Part shown: positions 3,978 through 55,071 of the stretch, one piece after another
Layout of the letters: each line of letters starts with the position of its first letter
Position numbering within the stretch: position 1 is the stretch's first letter
Assembly (NCBI GenBank): GCA_038063535.1
Contig: JBBTUV010000004.1
Location: 20,530 to 84,529 of the forward strand
Direction of reading: 5' to 3'
DNA: 64,000 nucleotides
From: Patescibacteria group bacterium
Lineage (GTDB): Bacteria > Patescibacteriota > Minisyncoccia > Phycocordibacterales > UBA9973
Notes under the pieces: generated by a model
The model's input: only the letters and a program-made list of their open reading frames with translations
The model's database searches: none
Told to the model about the DNA's origin: nothing
Position numbers and translations under genes: made by a program

Positions 3978-4061
3978 TGCCGTGGGGGAGATTTGAACTC
4001 CCAAGAGATTACTCTCAATAGCTCCTGAAGCTATCGCGTATACCAATTCCGCCACCACGGC
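3978..4061 (-). tRNA. tRNA-Leu (anticodon CAG)
   Basis: Reverse complement folds as a cloverleaf. Acceptor GCCGTGG/CCACGGC, anticodon stem ATAGC/GCTAT with loop TTCAGGA, long variable arm, T arm GGGAG-TTCAAAT-CTCCC, discriminator A. No encoded CCA. Confidence 0.9.
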
Positions 4062-4065
4062 TCTG

Positions 4066-4147
4066 TGGGCGAGAGAGGACTCGAACCTCCAAGTCTTTCG
4101 ACACGTGCTCCTAAGGCACGCGCGTATACCAATTCCGCCACTCGCCC
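4066..4147 (-). tRNA. tRNA-Leu (anticodon TAG)
   Basis: Acceptor GGGCGAG/CTCGCCC, anticodon stem CGTGC/GCACG with loop CTTAGGA, long variable arm, T loop TTCGAGT. No encoded CCA. Confidence 0.9.
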
Positions 4148-4151
4148 TCTG

Positions 4152-4224
4152 TCCGCCCTGTAGGATTCGAACCTACGACCTTCTCCTTAAGAGGGAGCAG
4201 CTCTACCAGCTGAGCTAAGGGCGG
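4152..4224 (-). tRNA. tRNA-Lys (anticodon CTT)
   Basis: Acceptor CCGCCCT/AGGGCGG, D arm TAGCTCAGCTGGTAGAGC, anticodon loop CTCTTAA, T arm GTAGG-TTCGAAT-CCTAC. Length 73 nt. Confidence 0.85.
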
Positions 4225-50465: not shown

Positions 50466-50466
50466 T

Positions 50467-50757
50467 ATGAAAAGTAATTCGAAAGAATATAAAAAGGAAA
50501 TCGTGGAGGTCCTTTCCAGGGTAGGGGATAAGAGGGCCTTAATGCGGGATTTCATTGAGGACCTTTTAACTCCGCATGAATTTGAGAACATTGGTTTTCG
50601 CTGGCAAATAGTGAAGCGTTTAGCGAAAGGAGAAACTCATCAATCTATCGCAGAAGATCTGCGCCTTGGCGTAAGCACGGTGACTCGGGGTTCTCGAGAG
50701 ATGCGTAACAAGGAAGGGGGCTTTCATAAAGTTCTCCGGCTTCTCAAGCTGGAATAG
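50467..50757 (+). CDS. TrpR-related YerC/YecD-family DNA-binding protein
   Basis: FIEDLLTPHEFENIGFRWQIVKRLAKGETHQSIAEDLRLGVSTVTRGSREMRN matches the Trp-repressor-like HTH pattern. The start is set at ATG 50467, 1 nt after the trpS stop (the track ORF starts at 50428 inside trpS). Confidence 0.7.
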   Translation: MKSNSKEYKKEIVEVLSRVGDKRALMRDFIEDLLTPHEFENIGFRWQIVKRLAKGETHQSIAEDLRLGVSTVTRGSREMRNKEGGFHKVLRLLKLE

Positions 50758-50833
50758 GTAGAAAAAGAAAGGGCAAGGGAACAGCGAGGTTATCCACACC
50801 TTGCTTTTTCTGCCCTTGACTTCTCCCACTATT

Positions 50834-50855
50834 CCATACTAGTATACTAGTATGG
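50834..50855. promoter_or_regulatory. 22-bp perfect palindrome, trp-operator-like (ACTAGT-N2-ACTAGT)
   Basis: CCATACTAGTA|TACTAGTATGG is its own reverse complement. TTGACT lies at 50816-50821, 18 nt upstream of the embedded TAGTAT. Operator function is inferred. Confidence 0.5.
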
Positions 50856-51045
50856 CAAGGATAGAAAGAAACGGAACGGAAATAAGTTCTAAAGGGAAGT
50901 GGTGGAGCGCAAACACACTTGTTTTTGCGTCTATCTTTTGATTTCTCTTTATTTTCTAAACTAAAAAAGGAATCCAAAAATCGGCGCATGAGCGTCGATT
51001 TTGTTCTTTAACAGTATACATAAACCTAAACAAAAAGGAGAAGAC

Positions 51046-52482
51046 ATGAAAATAGTTTCAGTTGGTGGACGCATTAAGTCAGCAAGTGTGGGACTTGATG
51101 TGTTCGTGCCGGGGAATGATAATTTCCAGACGCAGATGAAGCAGGCGCGAGACAACCCTCCGATGCCAATCTTGAGCGCATTCTTTCCTTCAGACAAAAA
51201 CCGTATGAAGCAAATGATGCAGGGTATCGGCTTCTATCGCCCGATGCTCAAGACAGATCAAGGAATGGGCGGAAACTTTCTCCCGTTCTACGTAGACCCA
51301 GTTCTAAGGACAACAGACCTCTCGCCCCGGCAGATCGTCCGAGAAGAGGGTTTGATCATCCCTGAACTCTACCTGGAGCATGACCCAGGGACACTTCAAG
51401 AACTTCGGGAAACGTTCCAAAGATTAGATCTATGGAACGCTGACCGGATTCTCACTCCACTACTCACGCAGTCCCGCGAAGCGGAGAAAGGAAGAACACC
51501 GTTCTTCTTTATCCGCCCAGCCTTGCTTTCGTCACCAATTGTGTTTGGTGATGACATCGTGAAGAAGGTCAACGAAGTTGTAGGACAGTTGCTGAAAACA
51601 GTTGAAGACCATGCGACCGGAAAGGCGGGCTTCAACCAAACAGGCAACTATCTCTACTTTCTCGCGGACGTATTCGTGACGACTGAAGGCGAGGTGGTAG
51701 TCGAGAAACTCCACTTCCCCGATGTCGGATTCTTCATGAGTGAGTTGGAGCTCAAGGACTCGATCGCTTTCGAAACTCAAGGTGTAGTACGCCAGATTCT
51801 AGATCAAGTTTTCGGACGGGTTCTAGGTATGGTCAACTCTCGGGTGGTCTACATAATCACTCGAGATGAAGTACTACAACGAAACGAGGATGTTTTGGAA
51901 ATCTTCGAGATACGAAGCATCTCTCGTAAGTTCTGTGAGGCGGGCATTCAGGTAGAAGTACGAAGTGTCAGCCAGGCGGGAGAAATTCCTTCTGGAGCAA
52001 CCTGTCTGCTTCTCAACATAGCCGAACACGGCTCTGTACTCCTAGAGCGCTACGGACGCGGAGAACTCGTCTGCTATCCGAGCCCGTATCTCCAGTTGGC
52101 ATCACGTGAGTTGACGGGGCTGAGAGAAAGCGTCGTTCCCCGCCAGTTCATGAGCAAGTTCATCAGTCTCATCGACTGTAGTCCGAAAGAACATGAGGAT
52201 GCCGAGACCGTAGTGTCAAAAATCAACGTTATACTTTCAAAAGATGGAGTTGTCTCGGAGCTACTTCATGTTGAAGTTGACGGCGAAACTGTTCCTGTCC
52301 ACCGAAGGATTCACCACTCGTGGAAGCAGTTGGTGAAAAGAGTTCACAGACATAGGGGTGATAAACCTCTTGAAGATGTAGCTCTCAAAATCCGCGAGCT
52401 TCCACTCACGCATCGGAACAGTATGGTAACAAGTACCACTGGTCCAAGGCTCCATGTGTTCAGGTTTACGTTTACTGCTTAG
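51046..52482 (+). CDS. Orphan 478-aa hypothetical protein (possible ATP-grasp-like fold)
   Basis: The start is set at ATG 51046 (MKIVSVGG) with AAAGGAG 5 nt upstream. No TM was seen. The segment YLYFLADVFVTTEGEVVVEKLHFPDVGFF loosely resembles the xDxxxxxxGxxxxxExNxxP strand of ATP-grasp/GSP-synthetase-like enzymes. Codon usage is unlike neighbouring genes. Confidence 0.5.
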   Translation: MKIVSVGGRIKSASVGLDVFVPGNDNFQTQMKQARDNPPMPILSAFFPSDKNRMKQMMQGIGFYRPMLKTDQGMGGNFLPFYVDPVLRTTDLSPRQIVREEGLIIPELYLEHDPGTLQELRETFQRLDLWNADRILTPLLTQSREAEKGRTPFFFIRPALLSSPIVFGDDIVKKVNEVVGQLLKTVEDHATGKAGFNQTGNYLYFLADVFVTTEGEVVVEKLHFPDVGFFMSELELKDSIAFETQGVVRQILDQVFGRVLGMVNSRVVYIITRDEVLQRNEDVLEIFEIRSISRKFCEAGIQVEVRSVSQAGEIPSGATCLLLNIAEHGSVLLERYGRGELVCYPSPYLQLASRELTGLRESVVPRQFMSKFISLIDCSPKEHEDAETVVSKINVILSKDGVVSELLHVEVDGETVPVHRRIHHSWKQLVKRVHRHRGDKPLEDVALKIRELPLTHRNSMVTSTTGPRLHVFRFTFTA

Positions 52483-52525
52483 TCTCCGATTAAATTATGG
52501 AGACAGAAAAGGAGGTATCAAGGAC

Positions 52526-52560
52526 GGGGGCTCGTTCATTGCAACAGCCCCCAACCTTTT
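52526..52560 (+). terminator. Intrinsic terminator after the 478-aa gene
   Basis: GGGGGCT (52526-52532) pairs with AGCCCCC (52546-52552) across a 13-nt loop, followed by AACCTTTTTA. Confidence 0.5.
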
Positions 52561-52599
52561 TATGTTAAAATTAACAATGAGTAAATTTAAATATAAAAA

Positions 52600-53010
52600 A
52601 TGAAAAATCTTGCGGAAATAAAAAAAGAAAACATGTGGCGCGCAGTAATGTCTCAAATTTACAAAGCAAAAAAGGAAATTTTAGCCACTATGGATATAGC
52701 TGAAGAGCTAAAAAATCCTTTACCTAAAAAATATTTTTCTTTATTATATAAAAAACACAAAGAAGGTATTAAAATTAAACGAGTAATTTTTGGTTCCACA
52801 AAACAATATAAACATTTATTAAAAGAAGCTGTAGATAAGAATTTGTTTTTTATAGGCAAACATACAAAATCAACAAATTATAAAAGGATGATTCTTATTG
52901 ACCGAAGCAAACTTTTTTTCTCCAGGGGGCATGGAGGTAAAAAAAAGTTTTATTTCACAACTGATGAGATCTATCTGAAGGAATATCTGGATTATTTTAA
53001 TGAGATATAG
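52600..53010 (+). CDS. Hypothetical 136-aa Lys-rich protein, very AT-rich gene
   Basis: This is the only long ORF in this stretch. There is a weak resemblance to TrmB C-terminal/PLD-like domains (KRMILIDRSKLFF). No HTH was seen. Confidence 0.4.
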   Translation: MKNLAEIKKENMWRAVMSQIYKAKKEILATMDIAEELKNPLPKKYFSLLYKKHKEGIKIKRVIFGSTKQYKHLLKEAVDKNLFFIGKHTKSTNYKRMILIDRSKLFFSRGHGGKKKFYFTTDEIYLKEYLDYFNEI

Positions 53011-53061
53011 AGTTTTCCGCAGGTGCTTGTCAAAAAATGAAATAACTGATACAGTTAAAGA

Positions 53062-53612
53062 GTGAGTAAAAGTACACAGCCGAAGAATGTTATCCTTGCC
53101 AGCCTTTAATCTAGAAGGCTGATCTTTGCGCTGTAAAAATCTCTCAACACTTACAACCCAAACACCAGCCTTCTAAACCTAGAGGCTGGTGTTCTCGTTT
53201 ACGAGAATAGTTGTTCTTCCCAAGCTCCGAAAGAGAGACAATAATGCCCAAGTCGTCCAGTTTGGAAGAGTGGTTCGTAGGGGCAATCAGATCGGGGAGA
53301 GACTTTCTGACTGTGCCTCCCCACATCACGGAACTTCCGTGCGGGCATCGACGAGCCCGCACTGATAGACCCTTCGAATTACGAAGGATACTGTTCCAGC
53401 TGGTTTGGGCCCACCACAACAGAGAACACCAGGGTCAGGGTTGTTTCTTGCCTCTGTCTTCAATTCTTCGGGAGAGCAATCTCCCGGAGAGAACAGACCA
53501 GCAGGAACGACCCCGTTACATGGCCGACGTTGGACGACCACGCTGAGTTCCGCCAGTGCAAGCAGTATGCGGAACACGGGGGGCTGTCGCGCGCGACAGC
53601 CCCCCTATTATT
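53062..53612 (+). ncRNA. Candidate structured non-coding RNA of unknown class
   Basis: There is no credible CDS here. The sequence is GC-rich with at least 8 local hairpins, including an 11-bp GCAA-tetraloop helix (53465-53490). A long-range helix is possible between 53252-53260 and 53530-53538. A promoter-like TTGTCA-N17-TGaTACAGT lies at 53027-53055. The stretch ends at the 53578-53605 terminator. The 5' end is uncertain; an alternative start is near 53252. Confidence 0.4.
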
Positions 53613-53619
53613 TTTTATT
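53578..53619 (+). terminator. Strong intrinsic terminator
   Basis: GGGGGGCTGTCGCG/CGCGACAGCCCCCC is a perfect 28-nt inverted repeat at 53578-53605, followed by TATTATTTTTTATT. The T-run is on the plus strand only. Confidence 0.75.
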
Positions 53620-53649
53620 CCGCTTTTTTTATGCTAAAATACTTTTACC

Positions 53650-55071
53650 GTGAAAAAAAGGATTTATATAAAAGATTTGAAAGACAATGTCGGCAAAGAA
53701 ATCACCATCGCCGGGTGGGTGGATGTCAGGCGCGATCAGGGCAAAATGGTATTTTTCGATATGCGGGATATGACGGGTAAGGTGCAGTGTGTGGCACTAC
53801 CAAGCCATGCCGAAGTAATTGAAACGGCGAAGGAGATAAGGCCGGAGTGGGTTTTGAAGATCATCGGGAAGGTAAACAAACGGCCGGAGAAAAATGTAAA
53901 CAAAGAAGTGCTAAATGGCGACATTGAACTTGAGATTACCAGCATCGAAGTTTTAAATAAATCTGAAACGCCGCCGTTTCCGATTGATGCTGACACTCGC
54001 GAAGTGGATGAAGATTTGCGTCTGAAGTACAGATATCTTGATCTAAGGAGCGACAGGATGCAGAAAAATGTCCGCATGCGCGACAAGGTTATTTCTTTTT
54101 TCCGCGACCACATGCACCAGAACGGCTTTGTCGAGATAGAAACCCCGATACTTATGCGCGGTACGCCTGAAGGCGCGCGCGAGTACGTAGTGCCCTCGAG
54201 GGTGTGGCAGGGAAAGTTCTATGCTCTGCCGCAATCGCCCCAGCAGTTCAAGCAGCTCTCGATGGTTGCCGGCTTTGAAAAATATTTCCAGATTGCTCGC
54301 TGCATGCGCGATGAGGACACAAGAGGGGACAGGCAGCCGGAATTCACCCAGCTCGACTATGAGATGTCATTCGTCGAGCGCGATGAGGTCCTGGAATACA
54401 CTGAAGGTATGTTCATTAAATTGATTGAAAAAGTTTATCCGGAAAAGAAAATTTCACAAATTCCGTTCCCGCGGCTCACTCACGCTGAATCAATGGAAAA
54501 ATACGGTTCGGACAAGCCGGACTTGCGTAAAGATAAAAACAATCCCGACGAGCTTGCATTTCTCTGGGTTGTTGATTTCCCGATGTTTGAAAAGACTGAT
54601 GAGGGAGACCCCGCAACGCAGGCTAACGGGGCAAGATTACAAGCGGTGCACCACCCTTTCTGCTCGATTCACCCGGAGGACAAGGAGAAATTCATGAAAG
54701 GCAAGGACATTTTCTCTATCCGCGCGAATGCTTATGACTTGGTCTTAAACGGCTACGAACTTTCTTCCGGCTCGATCCGCATCCACGACAGCGCCGAGCA
54801 AAAGAGGGTTTTTGATTTGCTGGAAATCAGCGAAGAAACTCAAGCAGCGAAATTCGGCCACATGCTCGAGGCTTTCAAATACGGCGCGCCGCCGCATGGC
54901 GGTTTTGCGCCCGGCATCGACCGCATTGTCATGATTCTTCAAAATGAACCGAATATCCGCGAAGTGATTCCTTTTGCCAAAACCGGCGAAGGCAAGGACC
55001 TCCTCATGGGCTCGCCGGCTGAAATTTCCGATAAGCAATTGAAAGAGTTGGGAATAAAATTAGGCAAATGA
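53650..55071 (+). CDS. aspS: Aspartate--tRNA ligase lacking the GAD insertion domain
   Basis: 473 aa with a GTG start. An OB-fold N-domain, the motif 2 region FYALPQSPQQFKQL...FQIARCMRDEDTRGDRQPEFTQLD, and motif 3 GGFAPGIDR. DKPDLRKDKNNPDELAFLWVVDFPMFE joins directly where bacterial enzymes carry about 130 aa. TGcTAAAAT lies at 53632-53640. Confidence 0.9.
   Translation: MKKRIYIKDLKDNVGKEITIAGWVDVRRDQGKMVFFDMRDMTGKVQCVALPSHAEVIETAKEIRPEWVLKIIGKVNKRPEKNVNKEVLNGDIELEITSIEVLNKSETPPFPIDADTREVDEDLRLKYRYLDLRSDRMQKNVRMRDKVISFFRDHMHQNGFVEIETPILMRGTPEGAREYVVPSRVWQGKFYALPQSPQQFKQLSMVAGFEKYFQIARCMRDEDTRGDRQPEFTQLDYEMSFVERDEVLEYTEGMFIKLIEKVYPEKKISQIPFPRLTHAESMEKYGSDKPDLRKDKNNPDELAFLWVVDFPMFEKTDEGDPATQANGARLQAVHHPFCSIHPEDKEKFMKGKDIFSIRANAYDLVLNGYELSSGSIRIHDSAEQKRVFDLLEISEETQAAKFGHMLEAFKYGAPPHGGFAPGIDRIVMILQNEPNIREVIPFAKTGEGKDLLMGSPAEISDKQLKELGIKLGK

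Follow-up and report, generated by a model that had tools for sequence, protein, structure and literature searches.

Several described systems place a structured or repeated element next to bacterial genes. T-box leaders, the leader-peptide attenuators of trp, leu and pheA in enterobacteria and protein-dependent attenuators such as the PyrR target rely on alternative RNA helices, one of them a terminator; multicopy small RNA (sRNA) families such as Qrr, PrrF and LhrC have a shared regulator box, and chromosomal integron cassettes come with VCR-type attC repeats. Here we report on an element that recalls each of these in part. It lies between trpS and aspS in a 64,000-nucleotide (nt) stretch of a Patescibacteria genome from groundwater (Paceibacteria/Nomurabacteria-like; contig JBBTUV010000004.1), called the window below, to which all positions refer. 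An earlier reading of the letters alone (the sequence-only reading) had flagged the hairpin-dense region 53027-53619 as one large structured non-coding RNA. We find that 53013-53619 is a single self-contained expression cassette on the + strand, set at a variable site in the trpS-aspS interval. The flagged stretch is almost certainly a composite of a promoter, a leader RNA of ~160 nt, a small protein gene (p100) and a terminator, not one RNA. We are highly confident that the leader belongs to a conserved structured RNA family on the + strand, and its sequence makes it probable that it acts in cis as a terminator/antiterminator switch, by transcription attenuation.

The composite nature of the region follows from its relatives. 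When the whole region was used as an nhmmer query against 80 aspS loci of related genomes, the matches fell into two independent parts: ~53060-53215 was matched in L007, L008 (two copies) and L057, and ~53260-53640 only in L005, with changes at third codon positions. The search of related contigs that the sequence-only reading had recommended thus returned homologous regions, for the leader and for the open reading frame (ORF) separately, and in relatives the two are found independently of each other. Folding energy is low throughout. Compared with dinucleotide shuffles, 53056-53619 has a z-score of -9.3 on the + strand and -7.4 on the - strand, far beyond chance, as the earlier proposal had led one to expect; on the + strand, the leader alone (53062-53222) reaches -6.6 and the p100 ORF alone (53244-53546) -4.0 to -4.9. 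Fifty-four window stretches of 303 nt, folded as + strand background, gave a mean z of -0.18 (sd 1.19, minimum -3.5), and the ORF is more structured than any of them; the most structured stretch sampled was 1401-1703 (z = -3.5, 57% GC). All eight local hairpins that had been read from the sequence are present at their positions, as an inverted-repeat scan confirmed. What holds of the proposed large RNA is that a structured RNA with no Rfam match is indeed there, but it spans only ~160 nt (53062-53221) rather than ~560. The abrupt switch to GC-rich composition is likewise real but modest: the ORF has 55.8% GC and the window 49.6%, and the true outlier is the AT-rich gene upstream, at 27.5%.

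The leader family was gathered with a pattern derived from five genomic copies, CTGATNNTTGYGYTN{15,45}AAACACCAGC. A scan of metagenomes returned at least 119 stretches with this pattern, while viral contigs held zero copies. Among the loci gathered, nhmmer found 130 strong copies over the whole element, in Patescibacteria genomes and in groundwater and soil metagenomes, and 17 loci carry two copies, 350-630 nt apart. A covariance model (R1) built from 96 copies gave 111 matches of 40-154 bits in these loci and a single one in the window (53053-53213, 129.6 bits, E 3e-27). No confident match to a known RNA family emerged. At the gathering score, Rfam 15 reported only six tRNAs in the whole window and nothing except tRNAs in 20 leader loci; at E <= 10, both strands of 52900-53750 gave chance matches only and nothing relevant (RNase P, T-box, tmRNA, 6S, OLE, ROOL, GOLLD, HEARO, raiA). 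ARAGORN found no tmRNA, and a literature search found no description of the leader element.

A promoter accompanies the leader. The promoter-like TTGTCA-N17-TGATACAGT noticed in the sequence-only reading was recovered by our scan, where it agrees with the consensus at 9 of 12 positions, plus the TG, with a 17-nt spacing. The assignment is strengthened by the recurrence of TTGCAT-N17-TGCTATAAT at the same distance in almost every leader copy, followed 6-7 nt later by GTGAAYAAAAATATACAGGCAAATAG. The predicted transcript runs on the + strand from near 53062. As the sequence-only reading held, the cassette is therefore a + strand unit transcribed independently, between a promoter that is kept in ~100 homologues and a terminator of its own. 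Just upstream of the promoter is a DnaA-box-like motif. In 35 of the 96 copies a perfect TTWTNCACA precedes the -35 element at a constant distance (107-132 nt 5' of the CTGAT anchor); its background rate is 0.015 per 170 nt. Read on the opposite strand, the start of the transcript (GTGAAYAA) gives TTRTTCAC and resembles a second, inverted DnaA box.

The leader can adopt two folds built from the same segments (Table 1). State T comprises the pairing of segment 0 with the extension of segment 2 (2-ext, 53122-36), of segment 1 with segment 2 and of segment 3 with segment 4 (53161-71 with 53183-93). It is the minimum free energy (MFE) fold of the window's leader, at -51.2 kcal/mol, in which ACAAC also pairs with GUUGU. 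In a MAFFT alignment of the family, 83.0% of the cells are paired in State T, compared with 31-47% when the partner is slid, and 34 cells show double changes against 12.4 +/- 3.0 in shuffles (0 of 500). On the model-fitted alignment, pairing rises to 85.4%, double changes occur at 14 of 21 pairs and they fill 54 cells against 16.1 +/- 3.4. Compensatory variants include TTTGTGC/GCACAAA, GTTGATA/TATCAAC, GCTTG/CAAGC and CCAACC/GGTTGG. The 3:4 helix is paired in ~91% of the family's cells, with compensatory changes. Of 94 copies, 79 have at least five T within the 8 nt behind the 3:4 hairpin and 8 more have a TTGTTCTTT-like tail there, so that 87 of 94 have a U-rich tail. A small hairpin inserted in the 3' side of the terminator is optional: only some members have it, in variants such as CTCG/CGAG, TTCG/CGGAA and CCCG/CGGG.

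In State A, segment 2 with its extension (53112-36) pairs over 26 bp with segment 3 and its own extension (53151-75). Here 79.6% of the cells are paired, against 32-43% with the partner slid, and 80 cells hold double changes, against 37.8 +/- 4.7 in shuffles (0 of 500). An alignment that was not fitted to the 2:3 helix gave nearly the same result (79.9% paired; 78 cells against 43.7 +/- 4.6). The outer pairs switch between TTAG/CTAA, CTCG/CGAG, TTTG/CAAA, TTGG/CCAA and TTCG/CGAA. When each state is enforced on the window's copy, the two lie ~1 kcal/mol apart.

Promoter, two alternative folds with covariation, U-tail and a downstream ORF with a Shine-Dalgarno (SD) sequence are thus conserved across the family, and together they suggest the following mechanism. 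Transcription would start at the sigma-70 promoter, just downstream of the DnaA-box-like motif. In State T ('off'), segments 0 and 1 would pair with segment 2 and leave segment 3 free for segment 4; the resulting 12-bp-class hairpin, followed by UUGUUCUU, would act as an intrinsic terminator ahead of p100. In State A ('on'), the imperfect 2:3 helix would sequester the 5' arm of this terminator and RNA polymerase would read through into p100, the strong terminator at 53578-53619 closing the unit. From this arrangement we infer that termination and read-through actually occur, that the 5' hairpin forms first, with 'off' as the default, and that some factor shifts the balance between the two states. 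This effector is probably a global rather than a gene-specific signal, since the leader sequence is nearly unchanged whatever gene follows.

Table 1. Features of the cassette and of the start of aspS
Feature	Positions	Strand	Role and basis
DnaA-box-like motif TTTTCCGCA	53013-53021	+	one mismatch to TTWTCCACA; just 5' of the -35 element
Sigma-70-type promoter: -35 TTGTCA (53027-53032), N17, extended -10 TGATACAGT (53047-53055)	53027-53055	+	consensus scan
Leader RNA, ~160 nt, from near GTGAGTAAAAG to the tail UUGUUCUUCC	53062-53221	+	covariance model, nhmmer, fold z
Segment 0, CACAGCCGAAGAA	53077-53089	+	pairs with 2-ext as outer stem of the 5' hairpin (anti-antiterminator); MFE fold, RNAduplex across the family
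Segment 1, CAGCCTT	53100-53106	+	pairs with AAGGCTG (53115-53121) as inner stem of the 5' hairpin; MFE fold
Segment 2 plus 2-ext, TAGAAGGCTGATCTTTGCGCTGTAA	53112-53136	+	shared strand, partner of segments 0 and 1 or of segment 3; inverted repeat I1
Segment 3-ext plus 3, TTACAACCCAAACACCAGCCTTCTA	53151-53175	+	pairs with segment 2 (antiterminator) or, via 53161-53171, with segment 4 (terminator)
Segment 4, AGGCTGGTGTT	53183-53193	+	3' strand of the hairpin 53161-53193 (terminator); inverted repeat I5, 11 bp, perfect
Optional hairpin TTCTCG-TTTA-CGAGAA	53192-53207	+	inserted in the 3' side of the terminator; terminator scan
Conserved tail GTTGTTCTTCCCA, family consensus TTGTTCTTT	53209-53221	+	TTG closes the terminator stem, UUCUU is the U-rich tail
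p100, 100-aa protein gene	53244-53546	+	protein homologues, invariant residues
Post-ORF hairpin GTTCCGC...GCGGAAC	53547-53575	+	in the sequence; near-unchanged 3' of the orthologous ORF in L203
Intrinsic terminator of the cassette, GGGGGGCTGTCGCG/CGCGACAGCCCCCC then T-run	53578-53619	+	terminator scan, inverted repeat I3; kept in L203
aspS extended -10 TGCTAAAAT (53632-53640) and GTG start (53650)	53632-53652	+	in the sequence; not part of the cassette

Several points weigh against this switch. Its mechanism is read from sequence alone. The search pattern fixes CTGAT..TTGYGYT and AAACACCAGC, so that the invariance of these parts, including one A.C pair, is partly by construction and the covariation evidence counts only at positions outside the pattern; kinship among the sequences may also inflate the shuffle-based statistics. 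The 1:2 helix is weakly conserved, with 380 of 712 ungapped cells in Watson-Crick pairs. Folded one at a time, 55 of 96 copies favour the terminator and 22 the antiterminator, so we infer the 'off' default rather than read it from the energies; with the aligned State T pairs enforced on every copy, the energies are unreliable, as many rows of the alignment have segment 0 out of register. The antiterminator contains fixed mismatches, mostly A.C (354 A.C cells against 53 G.U cells; an A.C cell is a G.U on the minus strand). These may keep the helix deliberately weak in its competition with the terminator, or they may mark a recognition site. No aptamer junction is obvious in the leader; by eye, we saw in it neither a specifier-like nor any other gene-specific variable element, nor an amino-acid-dependent specifier triplet in the leaders before pheA, ilvE, leuA, tyrS and pheS. 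Finally, the 160-nt RNA released by termination could itself have a function in trans.

A further step, which we take tentatively and on balance doubt, would make the leader a new riboswitch-like sensor class specific to Patescibacteria (the Candidate Phyla Radiation, CPR), in which one global signal gates dozens of units per lineage, among them tRNA synthetases, amino-acid biosynthesis genes and many small Cys-rich proteins. Segment 3 contains CACCA, like the 3' end of a tRNA, and segment 4 contains UGGUG; uncharged tRNA could therefore be a candidate signal, its free 3' end competing for segment 4. The signal could also be pH, with the A.C mismatches of the antiterminator pairing as protonated A+.C, and an alarmone or an RNA-melting protein on the U-rich bulge of the 5' hairpin are further candidates. 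Through the putative box at ~-50, transcription initiation might in addition be tied to DnaA.

The main rival, by our ranking, takes the terminated ~160-nt leader for a multicopy trans-acting sRNA with its own regulated promoter, the downstream ORFs being expressed by incidental read-through. The strong conserved promoter and possible regulator box would suit such an RNA, as would a conserved part that ends in a terminator-like hairpin with a U-tail, the many copies (two in each of 17 loci, as in known multicopy sRNA families) and a sequence that stays near-constant whatever gene follows. However, action in trans needs no antiterminator fold, yet the 2:3 helix shows compensatory change, and in most copies segment 3 is followed, at a distance of 45-115 nt, by a strong SD and ATG, the layout that a 5' untranslated region (UTR) would have. 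Complementarity to a target did not come to light either, although no search was aimed at it. We regard the sRNA as unlikely and retain the cis-acting switch.

Much less likely still is a DNA-level origin of the conservation, as a recombination site or miniature mobile element (attC-, VCR- or MITE-like, the last a miniature inverted-repeat transposable element) in a cassette hotspot. The element does form an imperfect dyad of ~125 bp, tandem units lie 350-630 bp apart and each has a different small ORF, and the A.C bias of the antiterminator amounts to G.T on the bottom strand. The locus is also variable: aspS directly follows trpS, with a gap of ~20-35 nt and no cassette, in L004 (2980-3001) and L012 (2965-3001), whereas the gap measures 2.5-3.2 kb in the window (50466-53649), L005, L007 and L008 and holds differing gene sets (TrpR-like, unknown 493-aa and 136-aa genes, prs, leader cassettes). 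It is because this junction is empty in some relatives and differently filled in others that we place the cassette in a variable hotspot. By eye, the leader and terminator that flank the ORF look near-identical between the window and L203, although the protein is only 55% identical. Against all this, promoter, start region, + strand G.U pairs, U-tail and SD-ORF indicate a transcribed + strand RNA; no RYYYAAC/GTTRRRY boxes, terminal inverted repeats or target duplications were seen by eye, no integrase or transposase Pfam match occurs among the neighbouring proteins, and the 64 kb hold one copy only. In the absence of boxes, repeats and recombinase, we rejected attC sites and MITEs.

That the long hairpin works instead in an antisense RNA, transcribed from the minus strand opposite the leader, is very improbable: the RNAalifold energies of five copies (minus strand -30.7 kcal/mol, plus strand -18.9), the surplus of A.C over G.U in the 2:3 helix and a promoter-like TTTACA-N18-TAGATT that the consensus scan placed on the minus strand speak for it, but the -10 of that site is not conserved in the family (forms TAAGAC, TAAGGG), it would transcribe away from the hairpin, the 0:2-ext helix has ~60 cells that are G.U on the + strand (A.C on the minus), and every other signal is on the + strand. 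We rejected it on the + strand G.U pairs and the non-conserved -10, and conclude that the leader RNA is, as its signals indicate, a + strand transcript.

The remaining rival is the original proposal itself, a single non-coding RNA over 53027-53619, possibly a divergent RNase P RNA, and p100 refutes it. In favour of one RNA are the very low folding energy over the whole stretch, the ORF part being more structured than the background, and the fact that the gene callers of the public collection called no gene at p100. The sequence-only reading had seen here only overlapping ORFs with no start context, a non-coding pattern; but the + strand ORF from ATG 53244 very probably codes for a protein, and we call it a gene because it is conserved at the protein level, the very observation that the reading had named as contrary to its proposal. 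GAGAGA (53233-38) precedes the ATG, a weak and unscored ribosome-binding match. In L005, two ORFs that stand in tandem ahead of aspS are related to p100 by BLASTP: one aligns over 90 residues (E 2e-17), the other over 59 (E 6e-10), the latter with no similarity detectable in the DNA. The L005 ORFs are also matched by tblastn, and one of the two has a good SD. A word-indexed protein search with p100 gave no match. An exhaustive phmmer search of 1.84 billion representative proteins retrieved 22 relatives of 84-134 aa, the best at E 3.8e-19 and 55% identity. Residues W10, C33, G34, F44, W55, H57 and C67 are invariant in the alignment, and position 35 is C or H.

The hairpins at 53294-53490, offered as RNA structure, are thus located within a coding gene, and so is the 9-mer pair 53252-60/53530-38, which is present as described but loses its role of closing an RNA domain. 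Fold z-scores of the family's ORFs range from +0.65 to -4.9 (-4.1 and -4.9 in the paralogues of L005 and L187) and the closest homologue, in which the hairpins of the window's ORF are not kept, has only -0.97; we therefore rejected a conserved RNA structure within the p100 ORF. Part of the pairing in the p100 mRNA sets Gly, Arg and Trp codons opposite Pro codons. The three RNase P-like stretches (53264, 53416 and 53493) are in the coding frame of p100, and the resemblance falls because they are codons; neither RF00010 nor RF00011 matched at E <= 10. One of the words, GGAAGAGTGGTTCGTAGGGGCA, encodes EEWFVGA, the most conserved motif of the p100 family. The absence of CR-I (GGAAAGUCC) and of a P4 helix, already remarked on in the sequence-only reading, is borne out.

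C33, C/H35, H57 and C67 suggest a four-ligand zinc site, and hence p100 may be a small zinc-binding protein. An AlphaFold (AF2) model shows a small alpha/beta domain (predicted local distance difference test score, pLDDT, 80) with no significant structural relative in the PDB, and p100 has no family in Pfam, NCBIfam, PHROGs or PADLOC. Its closest homologue, P0001 on contig L203, sits in an identical cassette, with leader, ORF, post-ORF hairpin, terminator and TGCTAAAAT box. In the window, the perfect terminator with 14-bp arms and T-run noted at 53578-53619 was confirmed by terminator and inverted-repeat scans: the 14-nt arms are 100% complementary, and 12 pairs were counted, 10 of them G-C, before the tail TATTATTTTT. 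The aspS gene lies outside the cassette and is not regulated by the leader; it has, as had been noted, its own box, TGCTAAAAT, after the terminator, with a similar TGTTAGAAT in L005. Its GTG stands ~10 nt after the extended -10 and has no SD, and the mRNA may be leaderless or nearly so.

The genes behind the leader are diverse. Most are small ORFs (40-130 aa), often Cys-rich, and the p100 family follows ~10 copies. Larger genes directly 3' of a leader encode prephenate dehydratase (pheA, 2 loci), class IV aminotransferase (ilvE, 3 loci) and LeuA (leuA), and synthetases are represented by TyrRS-type (tyrS), class-I I/L/M/V-type and PheS-like (pheS) genes; the Pfam families concerned are PDT, Aminotran_4, LeuA and tRNA-synt_1, 1b and 2d. 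Between leader and leuA we observed a Leu-rich leader peptide (L091 ~4050-4200, minus strand; L089 ~200-370; also L121, L202 and L126), with sequences MKHQISKFNTTLTLLLLTQKYL and MNNQKLKFNINLNLLLLTQNNL, followed by a hairpin CACCAGCCTCGAA...TTCGAGGCTG; these loci look like classical leu attenuation stacked behind the leader. The PheS-like protein of L157 (1912-3050) joins tRNA-synt_2d and a C-terminal FDX-ACB in a single 379-aa chain, and we take it to resemble the single-chain mitochondrial type of PheRS.

Some further observations concern the leader and its surroundings. An 11-codon mini-ORF, MLSLPAFNLEG (53089-53124), runs over segments 1 and 2 and has its stop in the invariant GGCUGA, with no SD; one subfamily (L114, L104, L160, L119 and others) keeps it as MFSFSALKLES, and it is absent from the larger subfamily, which has ATAGTT in place of TAATGTT. 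In L123, L116, L181 and L182, a second conserved, apparently structured stretch with no Rfam match, AAATACGCCAA..GGAGGGTTC..GGCGTATTTGCA..GAGCCCTCCAAT, lies ~60-200 nt 3' of the leader, before the next gene. Upstream of the cassette, the 136-aa ORF at 52600-53010 (27.5% GC) has no family match, and a 137-aa homologue in L125 also directly precedes a leader copy. The 493-aa ORF at 51001-52482 (478 aa in public assemblies) is part of the inserted block and has no match in Pfam, NCBIfam, PHROGs or PADLOC.

Gene regulation is almost unexplored in Patescibacteria, which have tiny genomes and cannot be grown alone. One 160-nt switch and one promoter type ahead of many unrelated genes, including essential tRNA synthetases, would constitute a common control point, and the leader is a riboswitch or attenuator candidate with clear on and off structures. 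Behind it stand diverse small proteins, some with probable zinc sites. The locus also illustrates that hairpin-dense, well-folding DNA can still be a protein gene, as the RNA-level signal is confined to the first quarter of the flagged region.

How does the leader compare with known systems? With bacterial RNase P RNA (RF00010/RF00011) the region shares three short word similarities only, all codons of a conserved protein, and neither a model match, a P4 helix nor GGAAAGUCC. Like the VCR/attC repeats of integrons, the element is an imperfect dyad of ~125 bp between small, diverse ORFs at a variable locus; unlike them, it stands ahead of each ORF and includes a promoter, its copies are scattered singly among housekeeping genes, its outer arms are TTAGAAGG/CCTTCTAA with no R boxes by eye, and there is no recombinase Pfam domain nearby. 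With Qrr, PrrF and LhrC it shares a large number of near-identical copies, part of them arranged in tandem, and a promoter and upstream box that recur from copy to copy, but the leader has a selected antiterminator fold and an SD-ORF after each copy. It resembles metabolite riboswitches as a conserved structured 5' UTR with an expression platform, although its downstream genes form no coherent set that would point to a ligand.

The closest likenesses are with attenuators. Protein-dependent systems (PyrR, the BglG/SacY ribonucleic antiterminator (RAT), ANTAR targets, the L10 leader) use the same logic of anti-antiterminator, antiterminator and terminator, and the conserved helix of the leader, with its fixed internal mismatches, could be a protein site; however, no Rfam family matches (PyrR, RF00515, included), no candidate for the binding protein emerged and the gene set is not related to pyrimidines or sugars. 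Leader-peptide attenuators have the same overlapping pairings (1:2, 2:3 and 3:4), the last of which forms an intrinsic terminator immediately ahead of the regulated gene. The leader differs from them in having no conserved peptide, as the 11-codon ORF occurs in one subfamily only and lacks an SD, and in the leuA loci the separate Leu-rich peptide sits downstream of it; leader-peptide attenuation was rejected, the ATG not being conserved. T-boxes, finally, are also 5' leaders in which the terminator and antiterminator helices exclude each other, and they also lie upstream of aminoacyl-tRNA synthetase and amino-acid genes (here tyrS, the class-I I/L/M/V-type gene, pheS, pheA, ilvE and leuA). Yet our leader does not match RF00230 (E <= 10 in the window, gathering score in 20 loci), measures ~160 nt instead of 200-300, lacks Stem I, specifier loop and T-box sequence and stays near-constant across amino acids, and most of its downstream genes are small unknown ORFs. 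Although it fails the defining features tested for each of these three families, the leader would work like a T-box, a leader-peptide attenuator or a protein-dependent attenuator.

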